IMG/VR virus record: IMGVR_UViG_3300033571_022960
Coordinates: 69,436-133,435 of that record
Direction: 5' to 3' (one strand)
DNA: 64,000 nucleotides
DNA from: a virus
Part shown: one piece after another, positions 5,140 through 63,942 of the stretch
How the letters are laid out: every line of letters starts with the position of its first letter
Position numbering within the stretch: the first letter of the stretch is position 1
Notes under the pieces: model-generated
Databases searched by the model: none
Told to the model about the DNA's origin: nothing
The model's input: the letters and a program-made list of their open reading frames with translations, nothing else
Translations under genes and position numbers: made by a program

Positions 5140-5643
5140 ATGGCAAATTTAATAAATCCAATGCCAGGTAGTTTTGGAACTGCTAGTTTTGAACCGTTGA
5201 GGAAGAATAGATTCTTCTTGAGATTTGATTCTGCTCTTGGTATTGCAGAATGGTATGTTTCTACTGCTGAAAGACCTAAATTAAAGATAGATGAAACTGA
5301 AATTCAATACCTGAATGGTTCTACTTGGGTTGCAGGTAGGGCAGTCTGGGAGCCTATTACTGTTGTATTAAGAGACCCGATTGGTCCTAGTGCTACTCAA
5401 GCAACAATAGAGTGGGTTCGTTTGTGCTACGAAAGTGTAACAAATCGAAGCGGTTACGCAACTGGTTACAAGCGTAATGTTGATTTAGAAATGTTAGACC
5501 CAACAGGAGTACCAGTACAAAGATGGGTTTTACAAGGTACCTGGATTTCAAACGCAGATTATGGTAATTTAGATTACTCAAGTAGCGATATTGCTGATAT
5601 AACTCTAAATTTGCGTTTTGACCGAGCAATTAACGTTTTTTAA
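5140..5643 (+). CDS. Tail tube protein (T4 gp19-like)
   Basis: FEPLRKNRF...RPKL...GRAVWEPITVVLRDPIGPS..QA..EW...YKRNVDLEMLDPTG..VQRWVLQGTW...LDYSSSD pattern; late motif 5076-5083; terminator after. Confidence 0.85.
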   Translation: MANLINPMPGSFGTASFEPLRKNRFFLRFDSALGIAEWYVSTAERPKLKIDETEIQYLNGSTWVAGRAVWEPITVVLRDPIGPSATQATIEWVRLCYESVTNRSGYATGYKRNVDLEMLDPTGVPVQRWVLQGTWISNADYGNLDYSSSDIADITLNLRFDRAINVF

Positions 5644-5661
5644 TTTTTTATCAATATATTT

Positions 5662-5693
5662 AAAACCCATGCAAAGTTTGCATGGGTTTTTTT
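5662..5693 (+). terminator. Intrinsic terminator
   Basis: AAAACCCATGCAAA-G-TTTGCATGGGTTTT followed by a T run. Confidence 0.85.
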
Positions 5694-5781
5694 ATTTACT
5701 TTATATTAAAAATTCTTAAATTTAATTATGATTCAATGTAATGAATGTGTTAAAGAATTCAAAAACTAACAAAAATAATAT

Positions 5782-6789: not shown

Positions 6790-7070
6790 TATAAACAATA
6801 ATCTAATAAAGAATCATCTGATAAAAGAATGTTTTTAAAACAATAAACATCACTAAAAAAATCTATTTCTATAATCAGATTAAGTTGGTTATGTTTAAAA
6901 CCTGCACTGTTAATAAAAAATTCTTCTCTAAGTTCAAATGAATCATAATATTTTAAAACTGTATCATTCCTTAATAAATCAAAATTAATCCATATTCTAC
7001 CTTTATTTTGCAAATTAAAGAAAAAATTATGTGATTTCTTTAAATTTATTAATGTTTTTTGTAACTTCAT
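6780..7070 (-). CDS. KTLxNL family member 3
   Basis: Starts MKLQKTLINLKKSHNFFFN. Confidence 0.75.
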   Translation of the reverse strand: MKLQKTLINLKKSHNFFFNLQNKGRIWINFDLLRNDTVLKYYDSFELREEFFINSAGFKHNQLNLIIEIDFFSDVYCFKNILLSDDSLLDYCLYYE

Positions 7071-7399
7071 TTATTAAATTTTTTATAATATAAATTATAA
7101 TGTTTGGATAATTTATTTATATTATTTTTATGAAAATAATAACTTTTATTATTAATTATAAAACTATATTGGGATTTAAAAGTAAAATCTGAAACTATAA
7201 TATTATTCTTTTTAATATATAAAGGATAAGGTAGTAATTCTTTATTACAAACACCATCCATAATCCACATAAAAGTTCTATATTTAAAAATATCATAATT
7301 GATTGGAATAATAGGGTTATCATCATAAGGATTTATAAATAATCCAAATGGATAATCTTTAGTTTGTTTTAGATTTTTTAGTGTTCTTTTTAAATCCAT
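7067..7399 (-). CDS. KTLxNL family member 4
   Basis: Starts MDLKRTLKNLKQTKDYPFG. Confidence 0.7.
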   Translation of the reverse strand: MDLKRTLKNLKQTKDYPFGLFINPYDDNPIIPINYDIFKYRTFMWIMDGVCNKELLPYPLYIKKNNIIVSDFTFKSQYSFIINNKSYYFHKNNINKLSKHYNLYYKKFNK

Positions 7400-7677
7400 A
7401 CCGTTTTTTCCATTATTTTAATTACTTTTTCATCAAAAATAAAACCATATTTATAATAGTTTTTAAGTGAATTTAAAAGTTTTTCGTTTGTATCAGATTT
7501 GTTAATAATATATGCAATGATTATTCTATCAGAATCCTTTAATTCACTTTTATTTATTAAACCAACCAATTCATTGATAAAAAGTTTATATTCATCCTGA
7601 TTTAATTCAACAATTCTTATAAATTTTTTTAAAATATCATCCCTTTTTTGGGTTTTATATAGATTTATATTACTCAT
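7390..7677 (-). CDS. Hypothetical protein
   Basis: 95-aa ORF in the minus-strand chain. Confidence 0.6.
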   Translation of the reverse strand: MSNINLYKTQKRDDILKKFIRIVELNQDEYKLFINELVGLINKSELKDSDRIIIAYIINKSDTNEKLLNSLKNYYKYGFIFDEKVIKIMEKTVWI

Positions 7678-7680
7678 AAG

Positions 7681-7938
7681 TTAATGAAAATAAAAGAAAT
7701 AAATTAAAGTTTTAGATGGTTTTATATTTGGAATTTGATTTCTAAAAACAAATTTACCATCAAATTCTTTGTTAATTTTTATATTTTTTAAACCAGTAGA
7801 ATCATAAGTAGTAGGTATTATTGATTTTAATTCCATACCAATTTTCAATAAATCATGGTTAACCCAAACATCTTTAGGAATATTAAAGAAAGAATTATTT
7901 GATTTTTCTAAATTTATTAATGTTTTATTTAATTTCAT
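7681..7938 (-). CDS. KTLxNL family member 5 (start corrected to ATG7938)
   Basis: MKLNKTLINLEKSNNSFFN; the longer track start overlaps the upstream gene. Confidence 0.75.
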   Translation of the reverse strand: MKLNKTLINLEKSNNSFFNIPKDVWVNHDLLKIGMELKSIIPTTYDSTGLKNIKINKEFDGKFVFRNQIPNIKPSKTLIYFFYFH

Positions 7939-8254
7939 AATATAATTCTTTGTTATGGTCATAAGATGGATTAATAAAGTATTTATTGCCAAATAATGTA
8001 AAATAACATCTAACCCCATTAACCCCATTATATTTATTAAAACGTATTTCGGATAAATTTAAATAAATTGTTTCTTTAATCGTTTTTAAACGATTATCAC
8101 TAACCAAAAAATTTGAATTATTTCTAAGTATATCCAAAGAATTAATTTTTAAATATTCTTTATTAAGAAAAGATATTTTAAACTCACTTTTACCCAAATT
8201 AAAAGGATATTTTTTTGATTTCCTTAAATTTTCAATAGTTTTTTCTAAGTCCAT
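7925..8254 (-). CDS. KTLxNL family member 6 (start corrected to ATG8254)
   Basis: MDLEKTIENLRKSKKYPFN. Confidence 0.75.
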   Translation of the reverse strand: MDLEKTIENLRKSKKYPFNLGKSEFKISFLNKEYLKINSLDILRNNSNFLVSDNRLKTIKETIYLNLSEIRFNKYNGVNGVRCYFTLFGNKYFINPSYDHNKELYYEIK

Positions 8255-8326
8255 ATTAATAAATTTAAGAAAAATAATTGAATTTTTCAAATCTATGGTT
8301 ATATTTGTTAAAAATATTAATAAAAT

Positions 8327-8533
8327 ATGAAAAAACTTTATGATGCAATTCTTCTTCACTATATGAGTGAAAAACAAAAATCTCTTGCACATCTTGAAAT
8401 TCTTTTTAAGAATCCATGTGGAATTGGTGAACACTCTGATATTTTGGAAGAGGTTAAAAAATGGGTTGAAATTGGTGCAAATGCAGATGATTGTATTAAT
8501 TTCTTAAAAACTGAATTTAAAATTGAGGAATAA
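8327..8533 (+). CDS. Small conserved phage hypothetical protein
   Basis: NPCGIGEHSDILEE motif; TATATTTG promoter box near 8300. Confidence 0.7.
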   Translation: MKKLYDAILLHYMSEKQKSLAHLEILFKNPCGIGEHSDILEEVKKWVEIGANADDCINFLKTEFKIEE

Positions 8534-8536
8534 AAT

Positions 8537-8713
8537 ATGAACGAACAAACATTGGAACAAAAGTTGGATATTATGTATAATCTAACCAAACAAGTAAATT
8601 TAAAATATGATGAACATGCAATTTTGCAACAATATTATCAGGAATTAAAAAATTACTTTAAACAAGAAGGTTCAAAAAAAGAAATAAAAAATACTGTTGA
8701 AGATGTTAATTGA
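8537..8713 (+). CDS. Hypothetical 58-aa protein (below track cut-off)
   Basis: Manual translation MNEQTLEQKLDIMYNLTKQVNLKYDEHAILQQYYQELKNYFKQEG...; fills the gap. Confidence 0.6.
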   Translation: MNEQTLEQKLDIMYNLTKQVNLKYDEHAILQQYYQELKNYFKQEGSKKEIKNTVEDVN

Positions 8714-8921
8714 AAAAAAATATAATACAAATTTTTATCCTAAAGTTGGTGATAAATATTTTAATGGTGAAAAAATATTTATTAAAGGTGTAGGTGTTAG
8801 ACTTAAAAAGTCAAGATTTTATGATGAGTGTTATATTGTTTTTGATAAAAATTATTTTATTGCAAAGGATGGGAAAGGTAACTGGATTAATGGAAAATTA
8901 ACAAAAAAACCTTTAATGTGA
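8703..8921 (+). CDS. Hypothetical protein
   Basis: ORF with overlapping start/stop coupling. Confidence 0.6.
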   Translation: MLIEKKYNTNFYPKVGDKYFNGEKIFIKGVGVRLKKSRFYDECYIVFDKNYFIAKDGKGNWINGKLTKKPLM

Positions 8922-9427
8922 AAACAAGAATAATCAATCTTTTTGGGGGTCCAAATTGTGGAAAATCAACAATTGCATCGGGATTATTTTATAATCTTAA
9001 AATTCTTGATATTAATTCAGAACTTATATCAGAATATGCAAAAATTAAGGTTTGGGAAGGAAATGAAAAAACCTTAAAAAATCAAATATATTTGTTTGCA
9101 AAACAACATTTTGCAATTCATAATGTATTGGGTTTGGTTGATTTTGTCATAATGGATTCCCCACTACTTTTAAATCCGATATACGATAAACAACAATGTG
9201 AAATCTTTAAAACACTTTGTTTATCAGAACATAATAAATTAAATAATATTAATTTCTTTATTAAAAGAAATGATAAAACTTTTCAGGAAATTGGAAGAAT
9301 TCATAATTTAAAACAATCAGAAGTTTTGGATAAACAAATAAAAGATTTTCTTGAAAACAATCAAATTGATTACTATGAAGTAACAAATCTTGAGGAAATA
9401 CTTGAAAAATTAAAAAATTTTCTTTAA
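8918..9427 (+). CDS. P-loop nucleotide kinase-like protein (AAA_28/NadR-type)
   Basis: IINLFGGPNCGKST Walker A; ELISEYAK; VIMDSPLLL. Confidence 0.7.
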   Translation: MKTRIINLFGGPNCGKSTIASGLFYNLKILDINSELISEYAKIKVWEGNEKTLKNQIYLFAKQHFAIHNVLGLVDFVIMDSPLLLNPIYDKQQCEIFKTLCLSEHNKLNNINFFIKRNDKTFQEIGRIHNLKQSEVLDKQIKDFLENNQIDYYEVTNLEEILEKLKNFL

Positions 9428-9436
9428 TTTTATATT

Positions 9437-9757
9437 ATGGATTTGGAAAAAACATTAAATAATTTAAAAAAATCAAAAACAGGTTTTTTTAATATGGATA
9501 ATTTTTTTGTTAATTTTGATACTTTTAAACTTAACTTACTTTATAGATATAAAATATACGGTAGAGAATATTTTAACATAATATCTCAAAACGTGAATTT
9601 AGAATATGGTGGTGAGTCATGTTATAGATTTACACAAGAACTTGTACATGAAAGACATGTTTTATATATTTTTAAAAATAAATTTTTCAAAGAAACAATG
9701 ACTTTATCCTATCAACTTTTTATCGGAGAATATGAACTTGCAAAAAACAATAACTAA
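9437..9757 (+). CDS. KTLxNL family member 7
   Basis: MDLEKTLNNLKKSKTGFFN. Confidence 0.75.
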   Translation: MDLEKTLNNLKKSKTGFFNMDNFFVNFDTFKLNLLYRYKIYGREYFNIISQNVNLEYGGESCYRFTQELVHERHVLYIFKNKFFKETMTLSYQLFIGEYELAKNNN

Positions 9758-10049
9758 TCTACAAAAATCAAGATATTCTTTTTTTAATATAAATGAAGAA
9801 GTCTGGGTTAATCTTGATTTATTTAAACGAGATTGTAAATATAGATTTTATTTGGATGTCAATAAAATAGAGTATAGTGAATGTAAAATTGATAATACTA
9901 ATAATTTAATTGAAAGTTTTTATGGTACTGTTTTATATAAAAAAATGGATGATTATCCATTAACACATATTTACATTTCTAAAAATAAAATTGATTATGA
10001 TTTTATGAGAAAACATGGTTTAGATTATTTTTTAGTGTTAGGGAAATAA
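9732..10049 (+). CDS. KTLxNL family member 8
   Basis: MNLQKTITNLQKSRYSFFN. Confidence 0.75.
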   Translation: MNLQKTITNLQKSRYSFFNINEEVWVNLDLFKRDCKYRFYLDVNKIEYSECKIDNTNNLIESFYGTVLYKKMDDYPLTHIYISKNKIDYDFMRKHGLDYFLVLGK

Positions 10050-10191
10050 ATGCAAAATTTATTTTTTAATCCTTCACTTCTTTTTATATTATTATGGTTT
10101 TTTGCGTAAAACCTTTTAAAATAACACCTATATTTAATATTTTACTTTATTTTTATCATTTTTTTTATTAGATTTATTAGAAAATTAAAAA

Positions 10192-11034
10192 ATGAGAAAA
10201 GTAGTTTTAGATGAAGATATGGAGAAAGATATTGTTTCTTTGTATTGTGATATGCAAATAGGTATTGAGGAACTTTGTAAAACCTATTCGGTAGGTAAAT
10301 TAAGAATTAAAGAAATTTTAAATAAACATTCCATACCTATTAAAAAAAGAGGTGCTCAAAATATGTTTAGTGAGGAAGTTAATTTAACTGAATTTAAAGT
10401 TCCACCATTTATTATTGAATGTGATGAAAATGAAAAGGTTGTTGCAGTTTGCAAAAAAACTGGAAAACAATTTAATGATTACTCAAATAAAAGTGGTGCA
10501 TTATCTAAATATTATAAAGAAAATTTTCCTGAAATAGAAATTCCTACTGATAATATTCCTATTAAAAAATATTTCTTAGAAAATGGTAAAAATTGGTTTG
10601 AAGAATATTTTGATTTTAAGATAATTAAATTAAAAGAAACAAAGAAATGTCCTTATTGTGATTGGGAGACAACTGATATAGATAATAAAAGTGGTTATTT
10701 TCAAAAACACATAAAAAAAGTACATAATATAAATCCAGAAGATTACTTAAAAGAATATCCTAACGATATAAAATATTTTACAAATTTAAAAAATAATAAA
10801 GAAAGAATAGAAAAATTATCCAAAAATGATACAATTAAGTGTGAAATATGTGGTGAAGAAATGTTATTTATTGCTGGACATTTAATAAAACATGAAATTA
10901 CAATATCTGAATACAAAGATATGTTCCCAAATGCAAAAATAATGGGTTTAAATACTAAAGAATTGTTAAAAGAAATGGGATTCGTTAAAATTTATAATTG
11001 TGGTTTATTTAGATATGTATTAGATTTAAATTAA
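10192..11034 (+). CDS. Zinc-finger protein, probable internally deleted homing-endonuclease-associated relic
   Basis: CPYC..H...H and CEIC..H..H fingers; C-terminal GFVKIYNCG; no clear nuclease core; sits next to the capsid gene. Confidence 0.5.
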   Translation: MRKVVLDEDMEKDIVSLYCDMQIGIEELCKTYSVGKLRIKEILNKHSIPIKKRGAQNMFSEEVNLTEFKVPPFIIECDENEKVVAVCKKTGKQFNDYSNKSGALSKYYKENFPEIEIPTDNIPIKKYFLENGKNWFEEYFDFKIIKLKETKKCPYCDWETTDIDNKSGYFQKHIKKVHNINPEDYLKEYPNDIKYFTNLKNNKERIEKLSKNDTIKCEICGEEMLFIAGHLIKHEITISEYKDMFPNAKIMGLNTKELLKEMGFVKIYNCGLFRYVLDLN

Positions 11035-11062
11035 AAAAGGTGGGATATTAATCCCACCTTTT
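11035..11062. terminator. Bidirectional intrinsic terminator
   Basis: AAAAGGTGGGAT-ATTA-ATCCCACCTTTT between convergent genes. Confidence 0.85.
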
Positions 11063-11083
11063 AAAGATTAATTAAGAAAAAAA

Positions 11084-12805
11084 TTATCTTAATTCATTAA
11101 GATTGAAGGTTTGAACCCCATCAACCGTAATTTTACCGTAAAATCGGTTATTGACAACTTTTTTCGCGTATCTTGATGCAATACCCTTTACAGGTGTCAT
11201 AGTAAATGGATTATACATTACAGGAGTTAATTGTAATGGCACATAAGGTGCATAAATATAACCAGCATCTAACAATGATTTACCTTTATGACCAATCAAG
11301 ATAGTATTAGCAGGTGAATAAGGGTCACGGTAAACCGTGTAACGACCACTCAAAGAACCTACTTTCTCAATACCCATGTTATATTGGTCCTCTTCAGGTG
11401 CTGCGTTAGAAACGTGGAAATATTCCAAATCGTCAAGAATTGCAGATACCTCAGAAGATACAACGATAAAGTTAGCACCACCTCTCAAAGTAGATTTATG
11501 GATTTGAGCAGAGATTTGATTGATTTTAGTCATCAAAGTCTGATTCCAATCTTTTTGAGTGTAAGGTGTAAAACCGTTAGTACTAGAACGTTTCCAACCA
11601 TTATAGTCCCAACGTAATTTCCAAGCGGCAGCCTTACGTAAGTCACGTAAAATTTCACGGTCAATCTCAGCAGCAATTTGTTCTGATAATAGAGCAGTCA
11701 ATTCTGCTTCAGCATCAATGTTGTGGAATGCACTAACATCTTGCGCCATTTCAGGAGACCAAGTTGCTCTTAATTTTCTATCAGTAACAGCAACAGTTAC
11801 AGACTCAATGTCAAAAGTAACTTCTGCAATTTCTGCTTCAAATTCTAATGAATCATAAACTTTATAAGTAACTGTCAATGCAGATAAAGCAGGAACAGTA
11901 GAACCAGTATAACCAGTCACATCATCACAGTCAAAACAAGCAGGACTAGACAAATCTAATTCAATATAAAGTTTACCTTCTTGGTCACAAATATCGAAAT
12001 AAGATGCACTACCGAATTTAGAACCTGTACCACGAGTGTTAGCAACAATAGATTTACCGTATTTTTGAGTTACAACTCTAAAATCAACAACTGCATTACT
12101 ATTTGCAGTGTTAACAACCTTTAAAGATGCCAAAAATTCTTCGGTATCCATTTCATTACCACGACCATCTAATATTTTACCATAACCATCACTATTATTA
12201 ACAGTAAAACCAGTTAATTCTACAATTGCATATTTTGCAGTTGTACCAGCAATACTTGCAGGAACAGTATTTCCTGATGCATTTAAAGTAACATAACGAC
12301 TAGCGGTTAAATTAACAGTAGTTGCTTTACCTTTAGTTCTGTCGAATAAAGAATTATCATAATCTGATTCTTGATAGAAACTGTCATACAAAGATTTAGT
12401 TTCATAAGCAGGACCACCAGTAGTATTTGGCCAACCGTAAGGTTTGTCATGAGAACCATCAGAATTTCTTACAGAAATCTTAGGGTTAAAGTAGAACAAT
12501 TTACCGATTGGTAAGTTCATTGCTTGAACTGAAACGATGTCATTTGCCAAAAGTTTAGAGAATACTCTACGTACAATTGGGAATACAACTGTTTCAAATG
12601 AACCTGAACTATCAGTAGTAGTTGCTTCATTGATTAGGTATGATGCTTGGTTTTCATACAATTGAGCAATGTTTTCTTTTAAATGACCTTTAAGACCATC
12701 TAAGAAACCTGCTTCATCCCACTTGCGAATAGTGGTTTTTCTCGCCTCTTTAATTTGGTTTAATCCGATATTTCCGAATTCACCACTTGATAAAATACTT
12801 CCCAT
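11084..12805 (-). CDS. Major capsid protein (T4 gp23-like)
   Basis: VSVQAMNLPIGKLFY, RKLRATWSPEMAQD, AEIDREI, YIYAPYVPL, GIASRYA motifs; INE/A propeptide-type site. Confidence 0.95.
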   Translation of the reverse strand: MGSILSSGEFGNIGLNQIKEARKTTIRKWDEAGFLDGLKGHLKENIAQLYENQASYLINEATTTDSSGSFETVVFPIVRRVFSKLLANDIVSVQAMNLPIGKLFYFNPKISVRNSDGSHDKPYGWPNTTGGPAYETKSLYDSFYQESDYDNSLFDRTKGKATTVNLTASRYVTLNASGNTVPASIAGTTAKYAIVELTGFTVNNSDGYGKILDGRGNEMDTEEFLASLKVVNTANSNAVVDFRVVTQKYGKSIVANTRGTGSKFGSASYFDICDQEGKLYIELDLSSPACFDCDDVTGYTGSTVPALSALTVTYKVYDSLEFEAEIAEVTFDIESVTVAVTDRKLRATWSPEMAQDVSAFHNIDAEAELTALLSEQIAAEIDREILRDLRKAAAWKLRWDYNGWKRSSTNGFTPYTQKDWNQTLMTKINQISAQIHKSTLRGGANFIVVSSEVSAILDDLEYFHVSNAAPEEDQYNMGIEKVGSLSGRYTVYRDPYSPANTILIGHKGKSLLDAGYIYAPYVPLQLTPVMYNPFTMTPVKGIASRYAKKVVNNRFYGKITVDGVQTFNLNELR

Positions 12806-12824
12806 ATTAATTTATTTAGTTTTT

Positions 12825-14099
12825 TTAGGAATTTTTATTGAACGTAAAGTTCATTAATTGTTTCATTCTTTCTGTTTGAGGGTCACGATATACAGTTTCC
12901 CCAATCAGTTGTTTACTTGTACCACTTGCAATTTGTTTATCAATATTCTCAACGATATTTTGTGATTTTGATTTTTGTTTCATTTCATTCATAATTTGTC
13001 TATAAATGTTTTTTGATTCTTTTAAATCAGTAACACCTTCAAAACGTTTAACAATATCAATTTTTTCTTGCTTAGTAGTTGTATTTTCTGTGAAAAGTCT
13101 AATCATGTGTGAAAAATTAGAATTAAATACTGCAACTTCATTTAGTTTTCCTCTAAAATGATTTAATGCAGATTTATATTCTTCATTTAAACTTTTGAAT
13201 TTAGAAAGGGTTTCTTTAAGTTCTTTGTTTTCATTCTTAATTTTAACCATTTCTTTTTTCAATTCCACACTTTCATTAGTTCTTTCAGCAGGTCTTTTTA
13301 ATTTATCAGGAAAAGACTTATCTTTAGAAACCATCTTTCTACCATTTGAGTGGGTTCTTGATGCTTCTTCCAAATCATCCATTTCATCTAAATCAATTTC
13401 TTCAATTTCATATACAGATTCTTGTGTTGGTTCTGTTTCTTCACTTCCAAAAAGTAAATCCATTTTTTCTGAATCTTCATCTTCTGAAAGTTCAATTTCA
13501 TAAACCAAATCTGATTCATCCATATCCATGTCAATGTCTTTACCTTCTTCTGATTCAGTTCTAATTAAGTATTCTTCATCACCATCACGTAATGAAATAT
13601 CCCCACCATCCTGGTGAACTTCAATTTCATCATCTGCAGTCATTTTCTTGAATACTTTAACTATTTCTTCATCATTCATTTGGGTTAAGTCCATAACACC
13701 ACCATCATCAACTAAAGAATCTTCTAAAGAAGGTGAGGGTAATTCTGAATCCAAATCTGATACTTCTGAATCAACATCTAACATTGGAGTTTCATCTGAA
13801 ACTTCATCTGACATTGGTTCATCTAATGATGGTTCTATTTCTGTCGCATCAGAAACTTCTTCATCTGTTTCTACATCACCCATGTTAACATCAGTATCAA
13901 CTTCTGTTTCATCATTTTCGGTGTCTGTGTTGTCTTTTTCTTCATCATCCAATTCAGTCACTAAAGACTCTTTTACAAGTTGGTTAATTTCTTCTCTCAT
14001 TTGTGATTGAAGTGTTTCTTTTACTTGTTTCTTGAAGATTTTCTCGATTTGCGATGCTTCGAGTAATGCCTCTTCAATTACGGATTTTTTTTCACTCAT
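12825..14099 (-). CDS. Prohead core/scaffold protein (start corrected to ATG14099)
   Basis: Highly acidic with a coiled-coil C-terminus, directly upstream of the capsid gene; late motif 14152-14159. Confidence 0.8.
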   Translation of the reverse strand: MSEKKSVIEEALLEASQIEKIFKKQVKETLQSQMREEINQLVKESLVTELDDEEKDNTDTENDETEVDTDVNMGDVETDEEVSDATEIEPSLDEPMSDEVSDETPMLDVDSEVSDLDSELPSPSLEDSLVDDGGVMDLTQMNDEEIVKVFKKMTADDEIEVHQDGGDISLRDGDEEYLIRTESEEGKDIDMDMDESDLVYEIELSEDEDSEKMDLLFGSEETEPTQESVYEIEEIDLDEMDDLEEASRTHSNGRKMVSKDKSFPDKLKRPAERTNESVELKKEMVKIKNENKELKETLSKFKSLNEEYKSALNHFRGKLNEVAVFNSNFSHMIRLFTENTTTKQEKIDIVKRFEGVTDLKESKNIYRQIMNEMKQKSKSQNIVENIDKQIASGTSKQLIGETVYRDPQTERMKQLMNFTFNKNS

Positions 14100-14250
14100 T
14101 TTAAATATTTGTAAAAAATTAAAAATTATGTTGCATTGCAACGATTATGATATAAATATATCGTTTTTTGAAAAATTCTATTTTTTATAAAAAAAATTAA
14201 AATATTTTTTTGCAATTGATTTTATGAAAAAAAAATTGTAGTTTTGTTAA

Positions 14251-14496
14251 ATGAAAACTTTTTTTGAAATATCTGAATTAAAAGAATCAAAAAATAAAGA
14301 TTGGGTTATAGATATTCTAAACCGTTTTGGATTGAGTACAACCAATTATAGTTTATCTTATAAAAACAACCAAGTAGTTATTTACTCTGGTAATCATAAA
14401 ATTATTTCAAAAGAAATAAACGGTAAAACCCAATACGAAATGTATTCACAAATACCACCACTTCATAAACATCCAAAAAAAACAATTATTATATGA
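14251..14496 (+). CDS. Hypothetical protein
   Basis: 81-aa ORF; TAGTTTTG box 4 nt upstream. Confidence 0.65.
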   Translation: MKTFFEISELKESKNKDWVIDILNRFGLSTTNYSLSYKNNQVVIYSGNHKIISKEINGKTQYEMYSQIPPLHKHPKKTIII

Positions 14497-15590
14497 AAGA
14501 AATACAAAACTCAATAACATTCTATACCTCATCTTTTGAGGATTTGGTTTTTCTTTATGAAAGAGAAAGACAAATTAATTTAAAATATAAAAAAAGTTTC
14601 AATAATGTTAATCTAACTAAGTTTGATGAAAAGTGGGGTAAATATACATTTAAAGAATCAGATTATTCATATTTAAAAAATAAAGAATTAAAAGTTTCTC
14701 TTTTTAATAAATTTTATATTATTAACGAAACTTTGGAACTATCCAAAGAAAATAAAGTTGATAAAACTATTTATCTTTTTACAAAAGACAGTTATGAAAA
14801 CTCTGGAAAAATAAGTAGATTTATTTTGTTTTATGAACAAGAAACTGATTTAGTTAAGGAAATAATAAAGGATATTATTAATTGTATGGAGGATTTGGAA
14901 AAAACTGAAAAATCAACATTAAATATTATTATTGATGATGGTGGAAATTTAAGATTAAAACCATTTCAAATTTCTTCAAAGGAAATTAATTTTGATAAAC
15001 ATTATAATAAATCATGCAAAGAATTTGTTGATGAATTATTGGATAAAGTTAAATTGGAAAAAGGTTTATTCTTAATGCATGGAAAACCTGGGACTGGTAA
15101 AACATCCCTAATAAGATGGATTATTAGTGTTTTAGATAAAAAAATGATTTATATTCCACCTGAAATGACAAGTGTAATATCAAATCCAAATTTCATTAAA
15201 TTTTTAATGAACCATCCAAAATCAATTCTTGTTATTGAGGATGCTGAAACCGTATTAATGAAAAGAACAAGTGGTGGAAGTTCTGCAATTCAAAATATCT
15301 TAAATCTTTGTGATGGTTTATTGTCTGATATGTTGCAAATACAAGTTATTGCAACTTTTAATACCGATATTAAGGATATTGACCCTGCATTATTAAGACC
15401 TGGTAGATTAAATGGTATATACGAATTTAAGGAATTGGATGATGATATTGCAAAAAATTTATGTCATGAATTGGGTGTTGATTTCGATTCTTTAAGGGAA
15501 AAAACTTTGGCAGAAATCTTTAATTCAAATGATAAATTTTCTTTTAACAAAAAGGTTGTTAGAAAATCAATTGGTTTCTCAAGTAAATAA
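14493..15590 (+). CDS. AAA+ ATPase
   Basis: GKPGTGKT Walker A, LVIEDAE Walker B, DPALLRPGRL second region of homology. Confidence 0.85.
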   Translation: MKEIQNSITFYTSSFEDLVFLYERERQINLKYKKSFNNVNLTKFDEKWGKYTFKESDYSYLKNKELKVSLFNKFYIINETLELSKENKVDKTIYLFTKDSYENSGKISRFILFYEQETDLVKEIIKDIINCMEDLEKTEKSTLNIIIDDGGNLRLKPFQISSKEINFDKHYNKSCKEFVDELLDKVKLEKGLFLMHGKPGTGKTSLIRWIISVLDKKMIYIPPEMTSVISNPNFIKFLMNHPKSILVIEDAETVLMKRTSGGSSAIQNILNLCDGLLSDMLQIQVIATFNTDIKDIDPALLRPGRLNGIYEFKELDDDIAKNLCHELGVDFDSLREKTLAEIFNSNDKFSFNKKVVRKSIGFSSK

Positions 15591-15975
15591 TATAAAATGT
15601 ATAAAGGAATTGTAGAAAATATTCGTAATTTTAAGTGGGGTAATATTTTTATAATAAATGTTTATATCAAGTTATTGATATAAAAAAAACAAATTTAAAT
15701 ATAAATGATTTTGTTGAGGTAGTGTTTTAAAAACTCCTGATAAACCTATTACCAACACCAATAAAAATACATCTTGAAATCAAGGATATTATTGAAAAAA
15801 ATGATTGGATAAGTCTTAATAATTATATTTCTTCATTTATAAATCCTGATACACACATAGGAATATTAAGAACAATTTTGGTTGCAATTAAAACTTTTAG
15901 GAATAAACTAGAAATAAAAAGTAGTATTGATAAAATATCTGAACTTTTACAATCTAAAATAACCAAACCACTATT

Positions 15976-16218
15976 ATGAAAGAAGGAAAATTAAATACCA
16001 ACATAAAAGATAGGGTAGTAACACCAAAGGAAGAAGTTTTACCACCACCTTCTGCAATTAATCAGAAAATAATCTTAGAATTATCAAATGATGATGCAAA
16101 AAAAATTCTTCATTGTCTAATGAGAACAAATGCAAGAAATAATAATAGTGGTTTAACAAATATTCTTGATGTTTGTGAAAGGGTTGAAAAGGAATTATAT
16201 GAAAAAATTAGTTGGTAA
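15976..16218 (+). CDS. Hypothetical protein
   Basis: 80-aa ORF. Confidence 0.6.
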   Translation: MKEGKLNTNIKDRVVTPKEEVLPPPSAINQKIILELSNDDAKKILHCLMRTNARNNNSGLTNILDVCERVEKELYEKISW

Positions 16219-16219
16219 T

Positions 16220-16486
16220 TTAATCATAAAATTCATCAGTAACTCCACCAGTTTGTCCTAAATATTTTGGAAATCTTGGTTTTACTCTACCTACAAGTAA
16301 TACATTTGCATTACCAGAACCAACCGTTTCAACTTTTAAATCAAATGTGTTGGGTCCTGATAAAGAAAGTGATTGTCCGTTAAATGTAACTGAATAAGGT
16401 CCTGCACCATTAACAACAACTCTATAAAAAAGATGTGTATTGGTGTTTGCAGATGTGGATGGAATTATTATATCGTTTACGTTCAT
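16220..16486 (-). CDS. Small late protein (possible virion component)
   Basis: Beta-rich 88 aa; ATAAATAT (minus-strand late motif) at 16496-16503. Confidence 0.6.
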   Translation of the reverse strand: MNVNDIIIPSTSANTNTHLFYRVVVNGAGPYSVTFNGQSLSLSGPNTFDLKVETVGSGNANVLLVGRVKPRFPKYLGQTGGVTDEFYD

Positions 16487-16538
16487 TTTTATTTTATAAA
16501 TATTTGATTTTTTGAAAAATTTTTATTAAATTTGAGTA

Positions 16539-16748
16539 ATGAATACTTTTGGTAAACTTATTGATGATATAAGAAAAGAAATAAAATATATTAATATTAG
16601 TTTTGAGGAAGTTCCTTTTGGTGAAATTATGACGATAAAAATACCAAATAAACCAAATCGAATGATTGTAATAAATAGTAAATTAATAAATAATAAAGAT
16701 TATACTGATATATTAGAAACATCAATTAAAACCTTAAAATTATTTTAA
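16539..16748 (+). CDS. Hypothetical protein
   Basis: TAAATTTG box 4 nt upstream of ATG. Confidence 0.6.
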   Translation: MNTFGKLIDDIRKEIKYINISFEEVPFGEIMTIKIPNKPNRMIVINSKLINNKDYTDILETSIKTLKLF

Positions 16749-16749
16749 A

Positions 16750-16995
16750 ATGAAAAATAAGTATCAAAACGAAAAACAAAAAGTATTTAATCCAAATTTC
16801 AATGATAATCACCCCGAAAAAAAATCAGATGAAATATTTTTAATAAATTTAAAAGAAGGTAAAGAAAATAATTTCAATAACATTGACTTTATAACAGATA
16901 TTAGAGCAGGTAATACTGCATATACTAATACTGGTGATATAGTTGAAGGATTTAAACCCTTATTTGGTAAATTAATATGTAGATGGACTCAATAA
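16750..16995 (+). CDS. Hypothetical protein
   Basis: 81-aa ORF in operon. Confidence 0.6.
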   Translation: MKNKYQNEKQKVFNPNFNDNHPEKKSDEIFLINLKEGKENNFNNIDFITDIRAGNTAYTNTGDIVEGFKPLFGKLICRWTQ

Positions 16996-17570
16996 TTAAA
17001 AAGTGTAAAGGTAATATTTTTGAAAAAAGTGGTATTAATATTTTATATCCTATTATAATAAAAGATTGGGATGAAGATGACCCTCTTGGTGGGTTTTGTG
17101 GGTTTGATAAAACAATTCATATAAATAAACATATTATTAATAATAATGGATTATTAAATAGAGTTGTATATCACGAATTTTTACATTTATTCTTACAAGT
17201 TGATACAAAATTATTTTATGATGTTTTGAGGGATAGATTTATATCAACCTATTTCTTTTACTTAAACAAATATTGCAATAAATACCAAGTGGTAATAATA
17301 AATCCAGATTGTGATGTTTGGGTTAAATTTAAACAAACCAATAGTGAGGGACTTAGAAATCAAAGTAAATTGAGAAAAAACAACTCTTTATCAAATAATT
17401 ACAATCAATTTACTATGTTAACTGAATTTATTGTTCATAATTCAGATTATTATTTTAATATAAATTTTAATGATGTAGTATTTGAGGATAAAACTATTTT
17501 AGAAATGAACAAATTTGTTTTTAATTTAGTTTTGGATAATATAGATAAACATAGTAAATTAAAAAATTAA
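16983..17570 (+). CDS. Putative zincin-like metallopeptidase
   Basis: VVYHEFLHLF (HExxH) preceded by GGFCG..TIHIN. Confidence 0.5.
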   Translation: MDSIIKKCKGNIFEKSGINILYPIIIKDWDEDDPLGGFCGFDKTIHINKHIINNNGLLNRVVYHEFLHLFLQVDTKLFYDVLRDRFISTYFFYLNKYCNKYQVVIINPDCDVWVKFKQTNSEGLRNQSKLRKNNSLSNNYNQFTMLTEFIVHNSDYYFNINFNDVVFEDKTILEMNKFVFNLVLDNIDKHSKLKN

Positions 17571-17595
17571 TTATTAAACAAAAAAGGTATTAATT

Positions 17596-18150
17596 ATGAT
17601 AAACAAAGAAAAATTAAAAGATATTGCATTGAATGCAATTAAAACTAAAGATTTTCATAAACTTAGATATATAGGTCAAACAATTGATTGTTTGTTGTTT
17701 GAACCTGAATATTCAGATGATGAACAATTATATATTTTATTTACAAAAATTAGTAAATTATTAAATAATAATGATTTTGATTTATTACACAAATTAGAAG
17801 TTACAAATTATCCTGATTTGGATGAAATAGGTTTCCCTAAATGTGAAACTTTTGATAATTTAAATGAAATATTCATTGTTGAGATGCGTAATAAAAAAGG
17901 TGAAACTGTCCCCTGTTGTTTCGTTTCTGATTCTATGGAAAAGGTTAAAAAATGGATGAAAGAAAATACTGATTTTTCATACGGTTTTTGGTATTGGGCA
18001 ATATTAAAAGGACAAGTTAATGGTTTAGGTTTTAATTTATATAAAGTTTATGATAAAAATGGTAATCTATTAGATGAAGAACCAATCCAAAAAAGTTTCT
18101 TTGAAAAATTATTAATAAATATTTTTACAAATAAAACTGAAATACTTTGA
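17596..18150 (+). CDS. Hypothetical protein
   Basis: 184-aa ORF. Confidence 0.7.
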   Translation: MINKEKLKDIALNAIKTKDFHKLRYIGQTIDCLLFEPEYSDDEQLYILFTKISKLLNNNDFDLLHKLEVTNYPDLDEIGFPKCETFDNLNEIFIVEMRNKKGETVPCCFVSDSMEKVKKWMKENTDFSYGFWYWAILKGQVNGLGFNLYKVYDKNGNLLDEEPIQKSFFEKLLINIFTNKTEIL

Positions 18151-58377: not shown

Positions 58378-59205
58378 TTAATGCAAATTAAAAACCTTTA
58401 TCTTTTCTCTTTTATCGGAGTATCTTGAATTTGTGGTAAAAATCATTTCAAAATGTTTTTCCAAATCATCATAACCATTTGAAAAAATTCCATGACTTAT
58501 TGCAAGATACAATTTACCATTAAATCCATTTTTTCTTAATTGTTCTGCAATATTAATAAACGTTTTGCCACCAAGACAAATATCGTCAACCAAGAGTAAA
58601 TCACAATCTTTTACAGGTGGAATTACTGTTACTATATTTCTTGTTTGTTCATCACGATACTTTGATGCAGAAACCACAGGAATAAATCCCAAATTTTCTG
58701 ATAGTTTGAAAATCTTTTTAAAAGAACCTGCATCACTTGATAATAATTTCAAATCTTTTCTTCCTATTATATTTACAACCCATTCAATAAAAGATTTATT
58801 ATCAATTCTTACACATTTATTTAATAATGCAGGTGCAACATCTGAATGTGAATCAAAAACAAAAAACTTTTTAACTTCCAAAGTGTTTAGTATTTTTGTT
58901 ATAGTTTTTAAGGAAAAACATTCACCCACACCAAAATCCCTATCTGCTTGTTGATAAGGAAAATATCTAATCATTACCTCAATTTTAACATCAAAATCCT
59001 TATTAATGGTATCAACCATCAACATCAACAATAAAAGGTCATCAGAACCCTTAAAATACCAATCTATCAGTATTATAGAATTGGGGTTACAAACAGATAA
59101 CTTTTCAATAACCGAATCATTTAATTTTAAATGTATTTCACCACCTGGAAAAATCCATGCATTATATTGATTGGTCTGCCTAACACCGTTAAGATTTATT
59201 ATCAT
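58378..59205 (-). CDS. prs: Ribose-phosphate pyrophosphokinase-like protein (Prs/Adps-like)
   Basis: FPGGEIH, YFPYQQADR, DSHS, SDAG, VDDICLGGKTF, SHGIFS. Confidence 0.85.
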   Translation of the reverse strand: MIINLNGVRQTNQYNAWIFPGGEIHLKLNDSVIEKLSVCNPNSIILIDWYFKGSDDLLLLMLMVDTINKDFDVKIEVMIRYFPYQQADRDFGVGECFSLKTITKILNTLEVKKFFVFDSHSDVAPALLNKCVRIDNKSFIEWVVNIIGRKDLKLLSSDAGSFKKIFKLSENLGFIPVVSASKYRDEQTRNIVTVIPPVKDCDLLLVDDICLGGKTFINIAEQLRKNGFNGKLYLAISHGIFSNGYDDLEKHFEMIFTTNSRYSDKREKIKVFNLH

Positions 59206-59420
59206 ATTAATTTTTTTAAATTTTCTAACTCTTCATTTGTTAATCTTTCCAAAGGAATTCTATTTGTTGCACCTAATGTTTTTAGATTTAAAACAACTCC
59301 ATAAGGAATAATAATATTATGTGAAACTATTAACCATTTAACTTTTCCTATTTCAATTACTTTTTCATAGGAATTTGTTATTTTTGGAATAATTTCTTCA
59401 ATTAATTCTGTTTTTGACAT
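59202..59420 (-). CDS. Hypothetical protein
   Basis: 72 aa between the nampt-like and prs-like genes. Confidence 0.6.
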   Translation of the reverse strand: MSKTELIEEIIPKITNSYEKVIEIGKVKWLIVSHNIIIPYGVVLNLKTLGATNRIPLERLTNEELENLKKLI

Positions 59421-60850
59421 AAACTATTTTTTACTCTTTCACGAATTTCATTAAATGAATATTCTTTAACAATTTTACCATTATAATAAACAGTTTCAAG
59501 CAAACCACCCCTTTCTTCTTCCCATGATACTTGGTCTTTTGTTATAAATTGATTATTTTCGTAATCCAATCTCATTAACCCCTTTAACGATTTTTTACCA
59601 GTATCAGTAATTGGGTCTTTCATAATTTCTATTGGTTGACCATTTACTTCAACATAAGTTGCCTTTAATGCGAAACCTAAAGTATCTCTTGAATGATTAC
59701 GCATAATACCACCAACCCCAATAACCAAATTTTCTGGTGAATATCCCATTTCAATTAATTTATTTAATGTTCTTTCATATCTTTCATAATACTGACCATC
59801 ACCATAAATTAAACCAACTTTATCATTTAAAACCTTTAAACCTTGTTTATTTATTGTATGACCAAAAACTTCATCCAACAATCTTATTGCACCCTTCCAT
59901 TCCAAAGAATCTTCTTCTGATTCAGGATTACCGCAAATTATATATTCAGGATTACCAGAATCAGGTCTAAAAACTACCTTACCTTCTCTTGATAAAATTT
60001 GTGGTTTTAATTTTGTTGCAAATTCTGTTAACACTTTATATACATTATATGTATCTGAAACTATTGACACAATACCATCAGGATAAAGTTTTAACATATT
60101 TTCAAAGGCAGCTAATTCATCTTCACGACCAAAACTACACATAACAGAATGTTCTGATGCAGGAACAGATTTCATTATATTATCATCTAAAGAACCATTA
60201 TAATAATCTAATATAAAAGGAATAGATGATACAGTATCACTACCATAAGAACTTAATAAAAATGCACTTCCAGAAATTGCAGCAGATTCTTCACTTGAAT
60301 CACTTCTATACCCAAAATCATGTACTGTATAATCTTTTTTCCAATGATTTTCTAAATCAACTAATTTAAACTTTTCTTCAACTAATTTTCTATATTTATA
60401 AACACAAGATGCAACTGTTGTTGGAAACCAAACTTTTAAAATTAAAGATTCAAAAAAACCTGGCAACCAATGAAAATCATCATGTGTTGATACTATTGTT
60501 TGTAATACTTGTTTAGTTGGTATTATTGTACCTTCTGGTACAGATTTTATATGTAAAGGAAAATAACCTAATTTTAATAAATCCATTAATTGTTTTCTAC
60601 TGTTATTTCCTTCTGAACCTAAGATATGTTTTTTATATCTAAGATGTTCATCAACGTTACTTTCAGTAATAAAACGAGAAAGATATTTTTTTAAAATACC
60701 TTGTTGACCATAATAAAGAACATCCTTAAAATGTTTATCTGAACGTGCAACCAAATGGTTATATACTTTATTACAACCAGGAACATATTGTTCCATGTGA
60801 CCCATTTTGTAAACATCAAGACCTAAAAGTGGATTTTTTTCTACTGACAT
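59402..60850 (-). CDS. nadV: Nicotinamide phosphoribosyltransferase-like protein (NadV/Namat-like; start corrected to ATG60850)
   Basis: LDVYKMGH, HDFGYR, VPASEHSV, VSDTY, VFRPDSG, IYGDG, GFALKAT. Confidence 0.9.
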   Translation of the reverse strand: MSVEKNPLLGLDVYKMGHMEQYVPGCNKVYNHLVARSDKHFKDVLYYGQQGILKKYLSRFITESNVDEHLRYKKHILGSEGNNSRKQLMDLLKLGYFPLHIKSVPEGTIIPTKQVLQTIVSTHDDFHWLPGFFESLILKVWFPTTVASCVYKYRKLVEEKFKLVDLENHWKKDYTVHDFGYRSDSSEESAAISGSAFLLSSYGSDTVSSIPFILDYYNGSLDDNIMKSVPASEHSVMCSFGREDELAAFENMLKLYPDGIVSIVSDTYNVYKVLTEFATKLKPQILSREGKVVFRPDSGNPEYIICGNPESEEDSLEWKGAIRLLDEVFGHTINKQGLKVLNDKVGLIYGDGQYYERYERTLNKLIEMGYSPENLVIGVGGIMRNHSRDTLGFALKATYVEVNGQPIEIMKDPITDTGKKSLKGLMRLDYENNQFITKDQVSWEEERGGLLETVYYNGKIVKEYSFNEIRERVKNSLCQKQN

Positions 60851-60854
60851 AATA

Positions 60855-61316
60855 TTAAAATTTAATTTTTGATTGTTTTTTATTAAAAATATTTTTTTCA
60901 ATTATTGATGAGCATTCAGGACCAATTCCATTTTCCAAACTTTCAGGATGTGTTAACTTTCTTCCACATCTTCCACAACGACCTTCGTGCATGAATTCCA
61001 ATTTAAGATTCTCAATATTATTCAACAAATACATAAAACCCAAAACAGAAGGTGAATTAGAACTTATTTTTGTTTTATTAGATTTTCCATGATAATATTC
61101 ACTATTTTTAACATAACCAATATAACTATAATCAGTTTCGTTATCTGTTCCTGTAAGTACTTTAACAAAGAAAATATCTTCTTTTTCTTTGTTTTTATTT
61201 GGATTATATACTTTATAAGTAAAATGTTTATTTGTGTTGGGATTCTTTAAAGTAAAAGTGGAATTCCCTGCGAATATAAAATTCTTAATATCAGATGGAT
61301 TGGTTATTTTATTCAT
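60855..61316 (-). CDS. Protein with C-terminal Zn ribbon (DUF6011-like; start corrected to ATG61316)
   Basis: GRCGRCGRKLTHPESLENGIGPEC. Confidence 0.75.
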   Translation of the reverse strand: MNKITNPSDIKNFIFAGNSTFTLKNPNTNKHFTYKVYNPNKNKEKEDIFFVKVLTGTDNETDYSYIGYVKNSEYYHGKSNKTKISSNSPSVLGFMYLLNNIENLKLEFMHEGRCGRCGRKLTHPESLENGIGPECSSIIEKNIFNKKQSKIKF

Positions 61317-62474: not shown

Positions 62475-62483
62475 TTCATTTTT

Positions 62484-62569
62484 GTTTACAAATTTCGTAA
62501 TAGTTAGTTTCTTTCATATTGAAAATCAATTAGTTATGGGTAGTTAGATATATACGATAGTTAGCAGTA
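62484..62569 (-). repeat. Degenerate attC-like site 3
   Basis: TACTGCTAAC-TAT-CGTATA directly after the stop of 62573-62830; partner arm decayed. Confidence 0.4.
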
Positions 62570-62572
62570 ATA

Positions 62573-62830
62573 TCATTTTTGTTCGTGAGCAACCCATCCA
62601 TTTTGTTTTAACTCAGTTGTATATTCGTGAATTATTTTATACTGTTCATATTGTTCATCTGTACAATGATATGAATTGAATTTTTGCAAAAACATTTCAT
62701 ACACTATCATTTCAACAATTTTAGGTGTTCCACTATATGCTTCCATAAGTGCTTTGTAATTTTTTTCCTGACCAAATGTTTTTGCAAAAAACAAAATGGC
62801 GTTTTCTACTTGTTCTTTACTTGCTTTCAT
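62573..62830 (-). CDS. Cassette-like hypothetical protein (start corrected to ATG62830)
   Basis: MKASKEQVENAIL...; bounded by GTTAGCAGTA and its complement TACTGCTAAC. Confidence 0.7.
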   Translation of the reverse strand: MKASKEQVENAILFFAKTFGQEKNYKALMEAYSGTPKIVEMIVYEMFLQKFNSYHCTDEQYEQYKIIHEYTTELKQNGWVAHEQK

Positions 62831-62867
62831 ATTTTTAAATTTATCGTTAAACAAAAATGATACATAC

Positions 62868-62922
62868 TGCTAACAGCGTATAAAAAACATTAAAACGATT
62901 TTTTATACGCAAAACGTTATAA
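62868..62922 (-). mobile_element. attC-like recombination site 2
   Basis: TTATAAC-N5-GCGTATAAAAAA-N11-TTTTTTATACGC-T-GTTAGCA. Confidence 0.6.
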
Positions 62923-62932
62923 AACATAAAAA

Positions 62933-63532
62933 TTATTCTGCTTTATCCCTTAATTTATGTTCACCGTTTCTAATTTTCTCCTTATATAATTCAAATTTGT
63001 TTTTGTCTGATGTTACTAAAAAAGGTTTATCATTTAATCTATCTTCTTCACATCTGTAAATGTAATATGTGGTTTGTTCCACAAAAACATTTGAGTAGTG
63101 CTAATATCCAACTTTATTTCCATAACAAATATAATCAATGTGATTCTCAACATATCCAGCAACAATAAAACTATTTCTTTTTTCTATAATCTTATAGATG
63201 TGAGTGAATCTATCTTTTAATATTGGTATTAGTTCATTCAATATCGAATCTTTTTCATCTTGATTTAACAAATTAAAATCCTTGTTTAATTCAAAGGTTC
63301 GTCTTAAATTAATTTTACGTAGTCCACATTGATGTCCATTTCCTTTATATTTATAAATTGGTGAATCAACCTTTAATTCATTCAATCCAATTTCATTTGG
63401 TAAAATATAACAATCAAATGGTTTATTGTGTTCTGTAATTTCAGAAACAGCGTTTGATTTTAAAATTTCACTAATACCATCACCTAAGTTAGCGATAGTT
63501 TCCATCTTGTCATTTAATAATTCTTTAAACAT
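62933..63532 (-). pseudogene. Cassette-like gene interrupted by an in-frame TAG (143 aa + 55 further open codons)
   Basis: Track ORF 63101-63532 ends at TAG; the same frame stays open to TAA 62933, 10 nt before attC-like site 2. Confidence 0.55.
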
Positions 63533-63577
63533 AGTTTTATTTTTAATTTATGATTATTTTTGTTAAACCGCACCTAC

Positions 63578-63672
63578 ACATAACAAGGTGTATAAGAAAG
63601 TTTGCTATCATCAGTTGTAGTTAATTTGAAAGTTCATCTAAGCAAACCTTCTCATACACCCAACCGTTATAC
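63578..63672 (-). mobile_element. attC-like recombination site 1
   Basis: GTATAAC-N5-GGTGTATGAGAAGGTTTGCT-N34-AGCAAACTTTCTTATACACC-TT-GTTATGT. Confidence 0.65.
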
Positions 63673-63681
63673 ACAATAATA

Positions 63682-63942
63682 TCACCCAAGTAAATAATTA
63701 TCAACTATCCTTTCAACCCCAACAGATGTATATCCAAGTTTCTTATTATCATTCAACCAATTCATAAAATCAAGTAAATCTTGTTTATTTTCAACACCCT
63801 TTAACACCGCTTTAGCACATTCTTCATTGAAAATATCCGTTAAAGCACCAACAGCATCTAATTTACCATCAACCATATTACTGTGTATAACACCAAATAT
63901 ATCCAATTTTGGGGGTTCATTTAACTTTTGTTCTTCTTCCAT
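63682..63942 (-). CDS. Cassette-like hypothetical protein
   Basis: 86 aa; stop lies 9 nt before attC-like site 1. Confidence 0.7.
   Translation of the reverse strand: MEEEQKLNEPPKLDIFGVIHSNMVDGKLDAVGALTDIFNEECAKAVLKGVENKQDLLDFMNWLNDNKKLGYTSVGVERIVDNYLLG

Follow-up and report, generated by a model that had tools for sequence, protein, structure and literature searches.

The end of a probable integron-like array of hairpin-headed gene cassettes in a large T4-like phage

Dependence on the IntI-specific domain is held to be a feature of integrons, which are seen as bacterial and, more recently, also archaeal systems. Enzymes of the Xer family are involved in two further systems, acting on a hairpin of single-stranded phage DNA in IMEX of the CTX-phi type and moving small modules between repeated sites in the dif-module cassettes of Acinetobacter plasmids; both of these systems use host XerC/D and dif-like 28-bp sites. 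From virulent phages, CALINs of at least two attC sites have been described with the use of bacterial attC models and tested with IntI1, as set out in the section of that report considered here (Qi et al., 2023; PMC9892861). The nearest phage precedent for the locus described below is provided by the PeSL repeats of T4-type phages (PMC2839356, PMC4122927). Our literature search found neither a publication of the present system nor integron-like systems in jumbo phages. We have analysed a stretch of viral DNA of 64,000 nt (the window) and consider it probable that it contains one end, that nearest to the recombinase, of a cassette array of integron-like type in a large T4-like phage.

The window occupies the final 64 kb of an IMG/VR record of 133,435 bases (IMGVR_UViG_3300033571_022960) with a G+C content of about 25%. 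CheckV rates the record as 41% complete, so that the full genome is probably longer than 300 kb. The standard genetic code applies, as translation table 11 gives about 90% coding density and TAG terminates 22 ORFs. A major capsid protein of the T4 gp23 type is encoded in the record, and its nearest cultured matches, all of low identity, include those of Flavobacterium phage immuto and Rhodothermus phage RM378. The phage is T4-like and large, and the first-pass annotation, made from the window sequence alone, had called it a Bacteroidota jumbo phage; the estimated genome length makes ‘jumbo’ likely, and the affiliation to Bacteroidota is plausible but indirect, coming from cultured homologues of the capsid protein and of the recombinase discussed below. 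Just downstream of the array, the minus strand of the window carries a NAMPT gene (59402–60901; PF04095, PF18127) and a PRPP-synthetase-like gene (58378–59205), the latter assigned from weak Pfam matches under the cut-offs; together these would be an NAD-salvage pair. Synteny traced through the NAMPT gene led to relatives that are at most 54% identical, with no arrays or recombinase near them. A family of repeats of about 60–130 nt and 70–90% identity, unrelated to the hairpin sites, is present at genome positions 4558–17690, 70707–70804 and 108129–108780.

All of the genes and sites listed by the first-pass annotation were found at their places on the minus strand of the window. ORF b1 (63682–63942, minus strand; 86 aa) is the cargo of a cassette that runs off the contig end, and it has no family match in Pfam or PHROGs and no close relative in IMG/VR. 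It is followed by hairpin site 1 (63573–63677, minus strand), a member of the 88-nt class, in which a left outer half ATTGTGTATAAC (63677–63666) and a right outer half GTTATGTGTAGG (63584–63573) enclose an inner hairpin (63665–63585), with TAAC at 63669–63666, GTTA at 63584–63581 and a stem of 21–22 bp when G.T pairs are counted in. If the crossover is taken at TAA|C, cassette b2 (62917–63666, minus strand) consists of hairpin 1, a leader and an ORF of 143 aa (63532–63101). This ORF ends at an in-frame TAG (63103–63101) that is followed by 55 further in-frame codons to position 62933, so that the single gene originally annotated at 62933–63532 is a 199-codon frame split into 143 and 55 codons. 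An alternative genetic code was ruled out as the explanation for this TAG by the coding density under code 11 and the number of ORFs that TAG ends. Since 55 open codons past a stop are expected by chance in only about 0.6% of cases at 25% G+C (a rough estimate), the b2 gene has probably suffered a recent nonsense mutation. The ends of the b2 cassette are also unpaired (GTTA-TGTG against TTTA-TAAC), so that b2 is probably decayed or composite; it has no close relative in IMG/VR, and the cassette proteins of the window have no Pfam or PHROGs matches.

Hairpin site 2 (62863–62927, minus strand), of the 48-nt class, has TAAC at 62919–62916, GTTA at 62874–62871, a 13-bp stem GCGTATAAAAAA(T) and an invariant loop CGTTTTAAT. 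The two sites share a common format, namely TATAACG, 3–4 nt, stem, loop, returning stem, T and GTTA. Cassette b3 (62561–62916, minus strand) comprises hairpin 2, a leader and an 85-aa ORF (62830–62573), and its two ends are GTTAGCAGTA and TACTGCTAA(C). That the start of this cassette complements its end had been noticed earlier and is correct, GTTAGCAGTA (62874–62865) being the exact complement of TACTGCTAAC (62569–62560). The earlier impression that the sites lack obvious extrahelical bases does not hold, as a conserved 3-nt bulge is present on the 5' side, and the outer helix of the sites is of 12 bp, not 4. A strict scan for the TAAC...GTTA format returned seven sites in the 133-kb contig compared with 2.0 in dinucleotide shuffles, and five of the seven, in two clusters and all on the gene-sense strand, have the common format and long stems. 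The definition of a CALIN is a group of two or more attC sites that has no integrase in its vicinity; hairpin sites number two in the window, and the 133 kb of the contig are without a recombinase.

A search of the rest of the genome for the site, as proposed in the first-pass annotation, uncovered a second array (array 1; genome 34610–36035), which lies 97 kb from that of the window. The three window sites recur there in the same order, with identities of 99% for site 1 (counterpart at genome 34610–34707), 80% for site 2 and 99% for site 3, and a fourth hairpin is found among them. The proteins encoded between the sites are non-homologous in the two arrays, and site 2 and its counterpart have the loop CGTTTTAAT in common while their stems differ yet stay complementary. 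The first cassette of array 1 is without paired ends. Upstream of the 41-aa ORF that opens this array there is a right half-site only (GATACACCTTGTTAGGTGCAG; genome 34166–34239, L002:1057–1130), which may be a deletion scar; the idea that the ORF itself is a methylase fragment found no Pfam support and was dropped. At genome 34805–34869 (L002:1696–1760), and at many other loci, similarity at the nucleotide level extends beyond hairpin 1 and its leader to cover roughly the first 60 nt of the ORF (MSTEIRQMIDKVKNFKQF...), and at a further locus (L010) the same N-terminus stands behind a truncated hairpin. From these alignments, a constant N-terminal module appears to travel with the hairpin 1 class.

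The sites of the window belong to a widespread family of sense-strand hairpins. A 20-mer from the stem of site 1 is present as an exact match in 108 IMG/VR stretches, many of them from contigs of 180–465 kb, and these loci are one-strand arrays of up to 18 sites spaced at 300–500 nt, in which site lengths group at about 48, 79, 88, 115 and 125 nt. Hairpin 1 shows hardly any sequence variation in the more than 100 contigs that carry it. The common anatomy is an outer helix in which ATTGnnnnTAAC(G) pairs with (T)GTTAnnnnCAGT, the 3-nt bulge on the 5' side, an inner stem of 13–25 bp and a variable tip. In the 48-nt class (44 members) the core is invariant and compensatory double changes affect 10 of the 13 pairs of the inner stem, with 96.8% of cells paired compared with 82.6% in shuffles and 37–67% when the partner columns are slid. 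There are 965 opposed positions of the G.T/T.G kind and 43 of the A.C/C.A kind, and the sense strand folds better in 360 of 384 sites, which argues that folding is under selection on the sense strand only. Of the features of attC, AAC/GTT cores, covariation and strand bias are seen in the sites; the unpaired element is a single 3-nt bulge, and the geometry is different. Rfam searches of the sites gave only sub-threshold, chance-level miRNA-like hits on generic long hairpins, no terminators were called at the sites, and promoter-like hits were at chance level. No isolate genome contained the site-1 20-mer, but it was also found in contigs of metagenome-assembled genomes (MAGs), whose phylum labels are scattered (6 of 20 are Bacteroidota). 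Such contigs (L145–L164) are labelled as Planctomycetota, Methanolobus, Woesearchaeota, Clostridia, Saccharibacteria and others, and most likely they are mis-binned phage contigs.

If the hairpin-bounded units are mobile as circles, the start of each cassette should pair with its own end, as this is the prediction for a site reconstituted by circularisation. Indeed, among 297 unique cassettes from the 108 viral stretches, at least 4 further contiguous bp were found between start and own end in 75%, with a mean pairing of 8.25 of 12; the same was true of 3% when the flanks of a single hairpin were compared and of 4.5% in random pairs. The start/end complementarity known from integron cassettes is therefore found overall, and in the window it is present in b3 and absent from b2. 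Comparison of arrays sharing a single cassette gave the limits of the mobile unit. In 28 of 33 such matches the homology stops 4–9 nt into the downstream TAAC site, the downstream hairpin is almost never included and the upstream TAAC is often the start of the homology, which indicates that the unit consists of hairpin, leader, ORF and tail and that the crossover would lie at TAA|C or directly beside it. The tip of the upstream hairpin differs in roughly every second shared cassette, so that hairpins are also altered by other routes. The 306 cassettes have a median length of 329 nt; 268 have an ORF on the folding strand, 20 an antisense ORF and 18 no ORF. The array orientation of the sites is kept even around the antisense ORFs, which argues for a role in DNA rather than a purely RNA role. 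Leaders are of 15–115 nt and are often conserved along with the hairpin, and the hairpin with 65–120 nt of leader is kept as a block before different ORFs.

Cassette b3 has moved between phages. It recurs at 98% identity in the array of another locus (L128) over the whole of window 62920–62560, that is from TAAC to TAAC with hairpin 2 included, and is followed there by a different 88-nt hairpin. In a third array, on a 266-kb contig (L129), it is present at 95% identity, with a hairpin ahead of it that has the same base and another tip, and with yet another hairpin after it; in the window, the docking site described below comes next. The right junction is always just past TACTGCTAAC, so that in three arrays with differing neighbours the cassette is joined exactly at TAAC. 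The first-pass annotation had held that a fixed gene order in related phages, with no gain or loss at GTT junctions, would speak against cassettes; the distribution of b3 over three arrays, and the differences between the Freya isolates considered below, are the opposite of this. Near-identical array pairs differing by one cassette were not present among the fetched loci. Few of the cargo genes can be named, and among these is an N6/N4 DNA methylase (PF01555, E 1e-43) encoded by the recombinase-adjoining cassette of another phage locus (L113:356–1150).

What had been described as a decayed third site is a hairpin-less docking site together with the first 13 codons of a tyrosine recombinase gene that has been deleted. 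The docking site, which is attI-like (62518–62563, minus strand), reads TAAC, then TATCGTATATAT, with more TAAC repeats, and the gene stub (62476–62517, minus strand) encodes MKETNYYEIC... before an early stop, the remainder being absent. Starting from the TAAC of site 3, the window and array 1 share 74 identical nt with a related locus (L123), where an ATG within those 74 nt begins an intact, Xer-like recombinase of 266 aa. When this protein was used in tblastn, residues 1–13 were found at window 62517–62479, residues 1–9 at genome 36007–36033, and nothing elsewhere in the contig. Both arrays are cut at the same point, which suggests that they derived from one truncated ancestor. A TAAC-TAnnnTATATA motif, with further TAAC repeats, lies 35–55 nt ahead of the recombinase ATG in eight of nine relatives, with no hairpin between the docking TAAC and the ATG. 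The pattern TAACTATNNTATATA has two matches only in the contig, both at array ends; the exact docking pattern gave four hits among 11 relatives, three of them at recombinase genes, and is too strict. The arrangement is that of attI, a docking site beside the integrase gene, and the Freya isolates vary at exactly that point. In one relative (L122) the docking site is adjoined, about 40 nt before its TAAC, by a small hairpin whose polarity is reversed (GTTATGGCA, loop TCGTTTTAATG, TGCCATAAC). A complete relative of 310 kb has a second docking-type motif (G005:C1:173983) 13 kb from the recombinase-linked one, which may mark a second array, as in the record studied here.

No integrase had been seen in the window by the first-pass annotation, and a profile search extends this to the whole 133-kb contig, from which PF00589 is absent and in which only stubs remain, that of the window being of 13 codons. 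In 12 of 21 large relatives, including four of the six that are at least 90% complete, PF00589 occurs once each; the other two near-complete relatives have arrays and no PF00589 gene. Each of the ten recombinase genes that were fetched is directly preceded, on its own strand, by an array. The encoded proteins are Xer-like and of 265–298 aa, and their best hit is NF040815, at 184–206 bits against a cut-off of 220 that was not reached. The XerC and XerD models gave 150–171 bits against cut-offs of about 330, below what equivalog assignment requires, and the TIGR02249 integron-integrase model gave 151–155 bits in two pieces against a cut-off of 265. Aligned with VchIntIA (2A3V), the phage enzyme has 28 residues where IntI has 76, a gap of about 48 residues, whereas the alignment with XerA (4A8E) runs from end to end. 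By sequence comparison, therefore, the recombinase lacks the IntI-specific insertion and does not qualify as an IntI. Motifs of the L123 protein look, by eye, like the usual catalytic residues of tyrosine recombinases. The IntI-specific insertion is held necessary for hairpin recombination by IntI, which counts against an integron reading here.

The order of elements on the recombinase-sense strand is cassettes, ...TAAC, docking site and recombinase. On the bottom strand of class 1 integrons the order is the same, and it is that strand which folds and is cleaved at AA|C. Judged by element order, the strand that folds better in the phage arrays is the same one as the integron bottom strand. However, in 268 of the 306 cassettes the ORF shares the strand of the recombinase gene and points to the docking site, which is not the orientation in integrons, where promoterless ORFs are directed away from attI and the integrase gene is divergent; such cargo ORFs of the phage cannot be driven from a promoter on the attI side.

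Among cultured phages, the recombinase has its nearest homologues in Ingeline, a phage of Cellulophaga (40% identity), and in the Polaribacter phages Freya_1 to Freya_10 (35%). The Freya genomes are 99.5–100% identical around the integrase, yet their sizes range from 43,978 to 48,920 bp. A single additional unit of about 300 nt distinguishes Freya_10 from Freya_9, other units are present in Freya_5 and Freya_6, and Freya_1 is without any of these. In Freya_1, 5, 6, 9 and 8/10, one docking sequence is joined to five distinct cassette ends (one ...CAAC, three ...CCAAC and one ...CTAAC), the junction being AAC|ACCCC, from which the docking sequence reads ACCCCTATAAC; the integrase ATG follows some 45 nt further on. 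A strict TAAC...GTTA scan of the Freya phages gave nothing convincing, their junctions reading CAAC, CCAAC or CTAAC. Bartlau et al. (PMC8776804) concluded from the integrase that the Freya phages are temperate and do not mention cassettes.

The evidence supports the interpretation of the array, ending as it does in a docking site and a recombinase stub, as a phage counterpart of the bacterial integron, though not a canonical one. The first-pass annotation had suggested a CALIN-like or distinct cassette system; cassette mobility, start/end pairing and the adjoining recombinase of relatives bear this out, whereas the Xer-like enzyme and the ORFs directed towards the docking site set it apart from a canonical integron. 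Telling against the integron-like reading are the presence of mere stubs of the recombinase gene in this contig, the unpaired ends of b2 and of the first cassette of array 1, the differing hairpin tips of shared cassettes, and the two near-complete relatives whose arrays are accompanied by no PF00589 gene. Each cassette, read on the gene-sense strand, begins with an imperfect hairpin, whose TAAC...GTTA core is fixed, followed by a short leader and usually one small ORF, and its tail (ATTGnnnnTAA) pairs with the bases just past its own hairpin (GTTAnnnnCAGT). Our current working hypothesis is that the short, Xer-like tyrosine recombinase that adjoins the array in relatives would bind the folded, single sense strand, and that strand exchange, presumably at TAA|C, would excise cassettes as circles and insert them at the hairpin-less docking site before the recombinase gene. 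As both arrays of the present phage end in a docking site and the first 9–13 codons of the recombinase, their cassettes would be stranded unless the enzyme is supplied elsewhere, either by a co-infecting phage or by a gene in the 59% of the genome that is unsequenced. More generally, we think it likely that large phages, probably of Bacteroidota, run an integron analogue of their own, in which a short, Xer-like enzyme without the IntI domain would capture and reshuffle hairpin-headed cassettes on the folded sense strand, with cassettes circulating between unrelated phages and arrays outlasting the loss of the enzyme.

When interpreting such arrays, it is important that homology-driven shuffling is considered, as the hairpins might be PeSL-like regulatory repeats, that is a terminator or RNA-processing hairpin with a promoter, between which homologous recombination moves genes, the recombinase being a lysogeny integrase that is nearby by chance. 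The T4 gp23-type capsid protein, the position of the hairpins between co-oriented genes, their folding on the transcribed strand and the conserved blocks of hairpin and 65–120-nt leader before different ORFs would all be consistent with this, as would the circles documented for PeSL (PMC2839356, PMC4122927) and the reading of the Freya integrase as a temperate sign (PMC8776804). Exchange within repeats does not, however, predict that a cassette start pairs with its own end, that junctions are fixed at TAAC, or that a hairpin-less docking site stands 35–55 nt ahead of a recombinase ATG. Moreover, PeSL combine an early sigma-70 promoter with a terminator stem-loop and are exchanged by homology, whereas the sites here gave no terminator calls and promoter-like hits at chance level, and their orientation tracks the array, not the gene. 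We regard shuffling of this kind as an improbable explanation of the arrays.

The wobble pairs on the sense strand raise a further point that counts against an integron-like reading, since G.U-type pairs on the transcribed strand would fit an RNA role as well. A role in RNA only, with hairpins for processing or stability and 5'/3' panhandles for each message and no DNA recombination, would account for wobble pairs on that strand only and for the paired cassette ends, which could close an mRNA loop. It leaves unexplained the mobility of the cassettes, the docking-site polymorphism beside the integrase and the fixed orientation of sites around antisense ORFs, no Rfam family matched beyond the chance-level miRNA-like hits, and we give this explanation very little weight. 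We consider it equally far-fetched that the sites are genuine bacterial attC, in a CALIN acquired from a host integron and served by host IntI, despite their AAC/GTT cores and hairpin geometry and despite the IntI1-recombinable attC CALINs that the cited section reports in virulent phages, a Polaribacter phage included (PMC9892861). The arrays are linked to a phage-encoded, Xer-like enzyme with its own docking site, the site-1 20-mer was found only in viral contigs and MAG contigs of scattered label, and in none of the isolate genomes, and the ORFs lie on the folding strand, opposite to those of bacterial cassettes.

If the integron-like reading of the phage arrays is true, hairpin-based cassette capture evolved, or persisted, outside IntI, and large phages own a dedicated route by which to swap accessory genes of about 300 nt, DNA methylases included. 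It would also offer a compact, structure-specific recombination system to study, testable in cultured Polaribacter and Cellulophaga phages.

Compared with CTX-phi and the dif modules, the recombinase of the array-bearing relatives is encoded by the phage. The PeSL repeats are alike in that intergenic stem-loops bound small novel ORFs in plastic regions and genes are moved as modules, but their shuffling is driven by homology, and they have no dedicated recombinase, fixed core, docking site or start/end pairing (PMC2839356, PMC4122927). The CALINs of Qi et al. (PMC9892861) share with the present arrays the occurrence of attC-type clusters in integrase-less phage genomes, including that of a Polaribacter phage, and of DNA methylases in the cargo, matched here by the methylase cassette of L113; a phage-encoded Xer-like enzyme, a docking site and long arrays are not described in section 3.4 of that report. 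In organization the arrays are close to the integrons themselves (IntI, attI and attC), especially sedentary chromosomal ones with homogeneous repeats, and to CALINs, which are likewise arrays of mostly single-gene cassettes, the window array being CALIN-like in that it is itself enzyme-less. Shared with integrons are imperfect hairpins that fold around AAC/GTT cores and have a variable tip and an unpaired element, the selection for structure on one strand, the complementarity of each cassette start to its own end, the hairpin-less docking site beside a tyrosine recombinase gene, and the polarity of the sites on the recombinase-sense strand (RYYYAAC, docking site, gene). The phage system differs in its Xer-like enzyme of 265–298 aa, shorter than VchIntIA by about 48 residues at the IntI-specific insertion, in ORFs that are encoded by the folding strand and directed at the docking site and recombinase, in sites with a 12-bp outer helix, conserved ATTG/CAGT ends and a single 3-nt bulge in place of two extrahelical bases, in cassettes that have leaders, and in being carried by phages.
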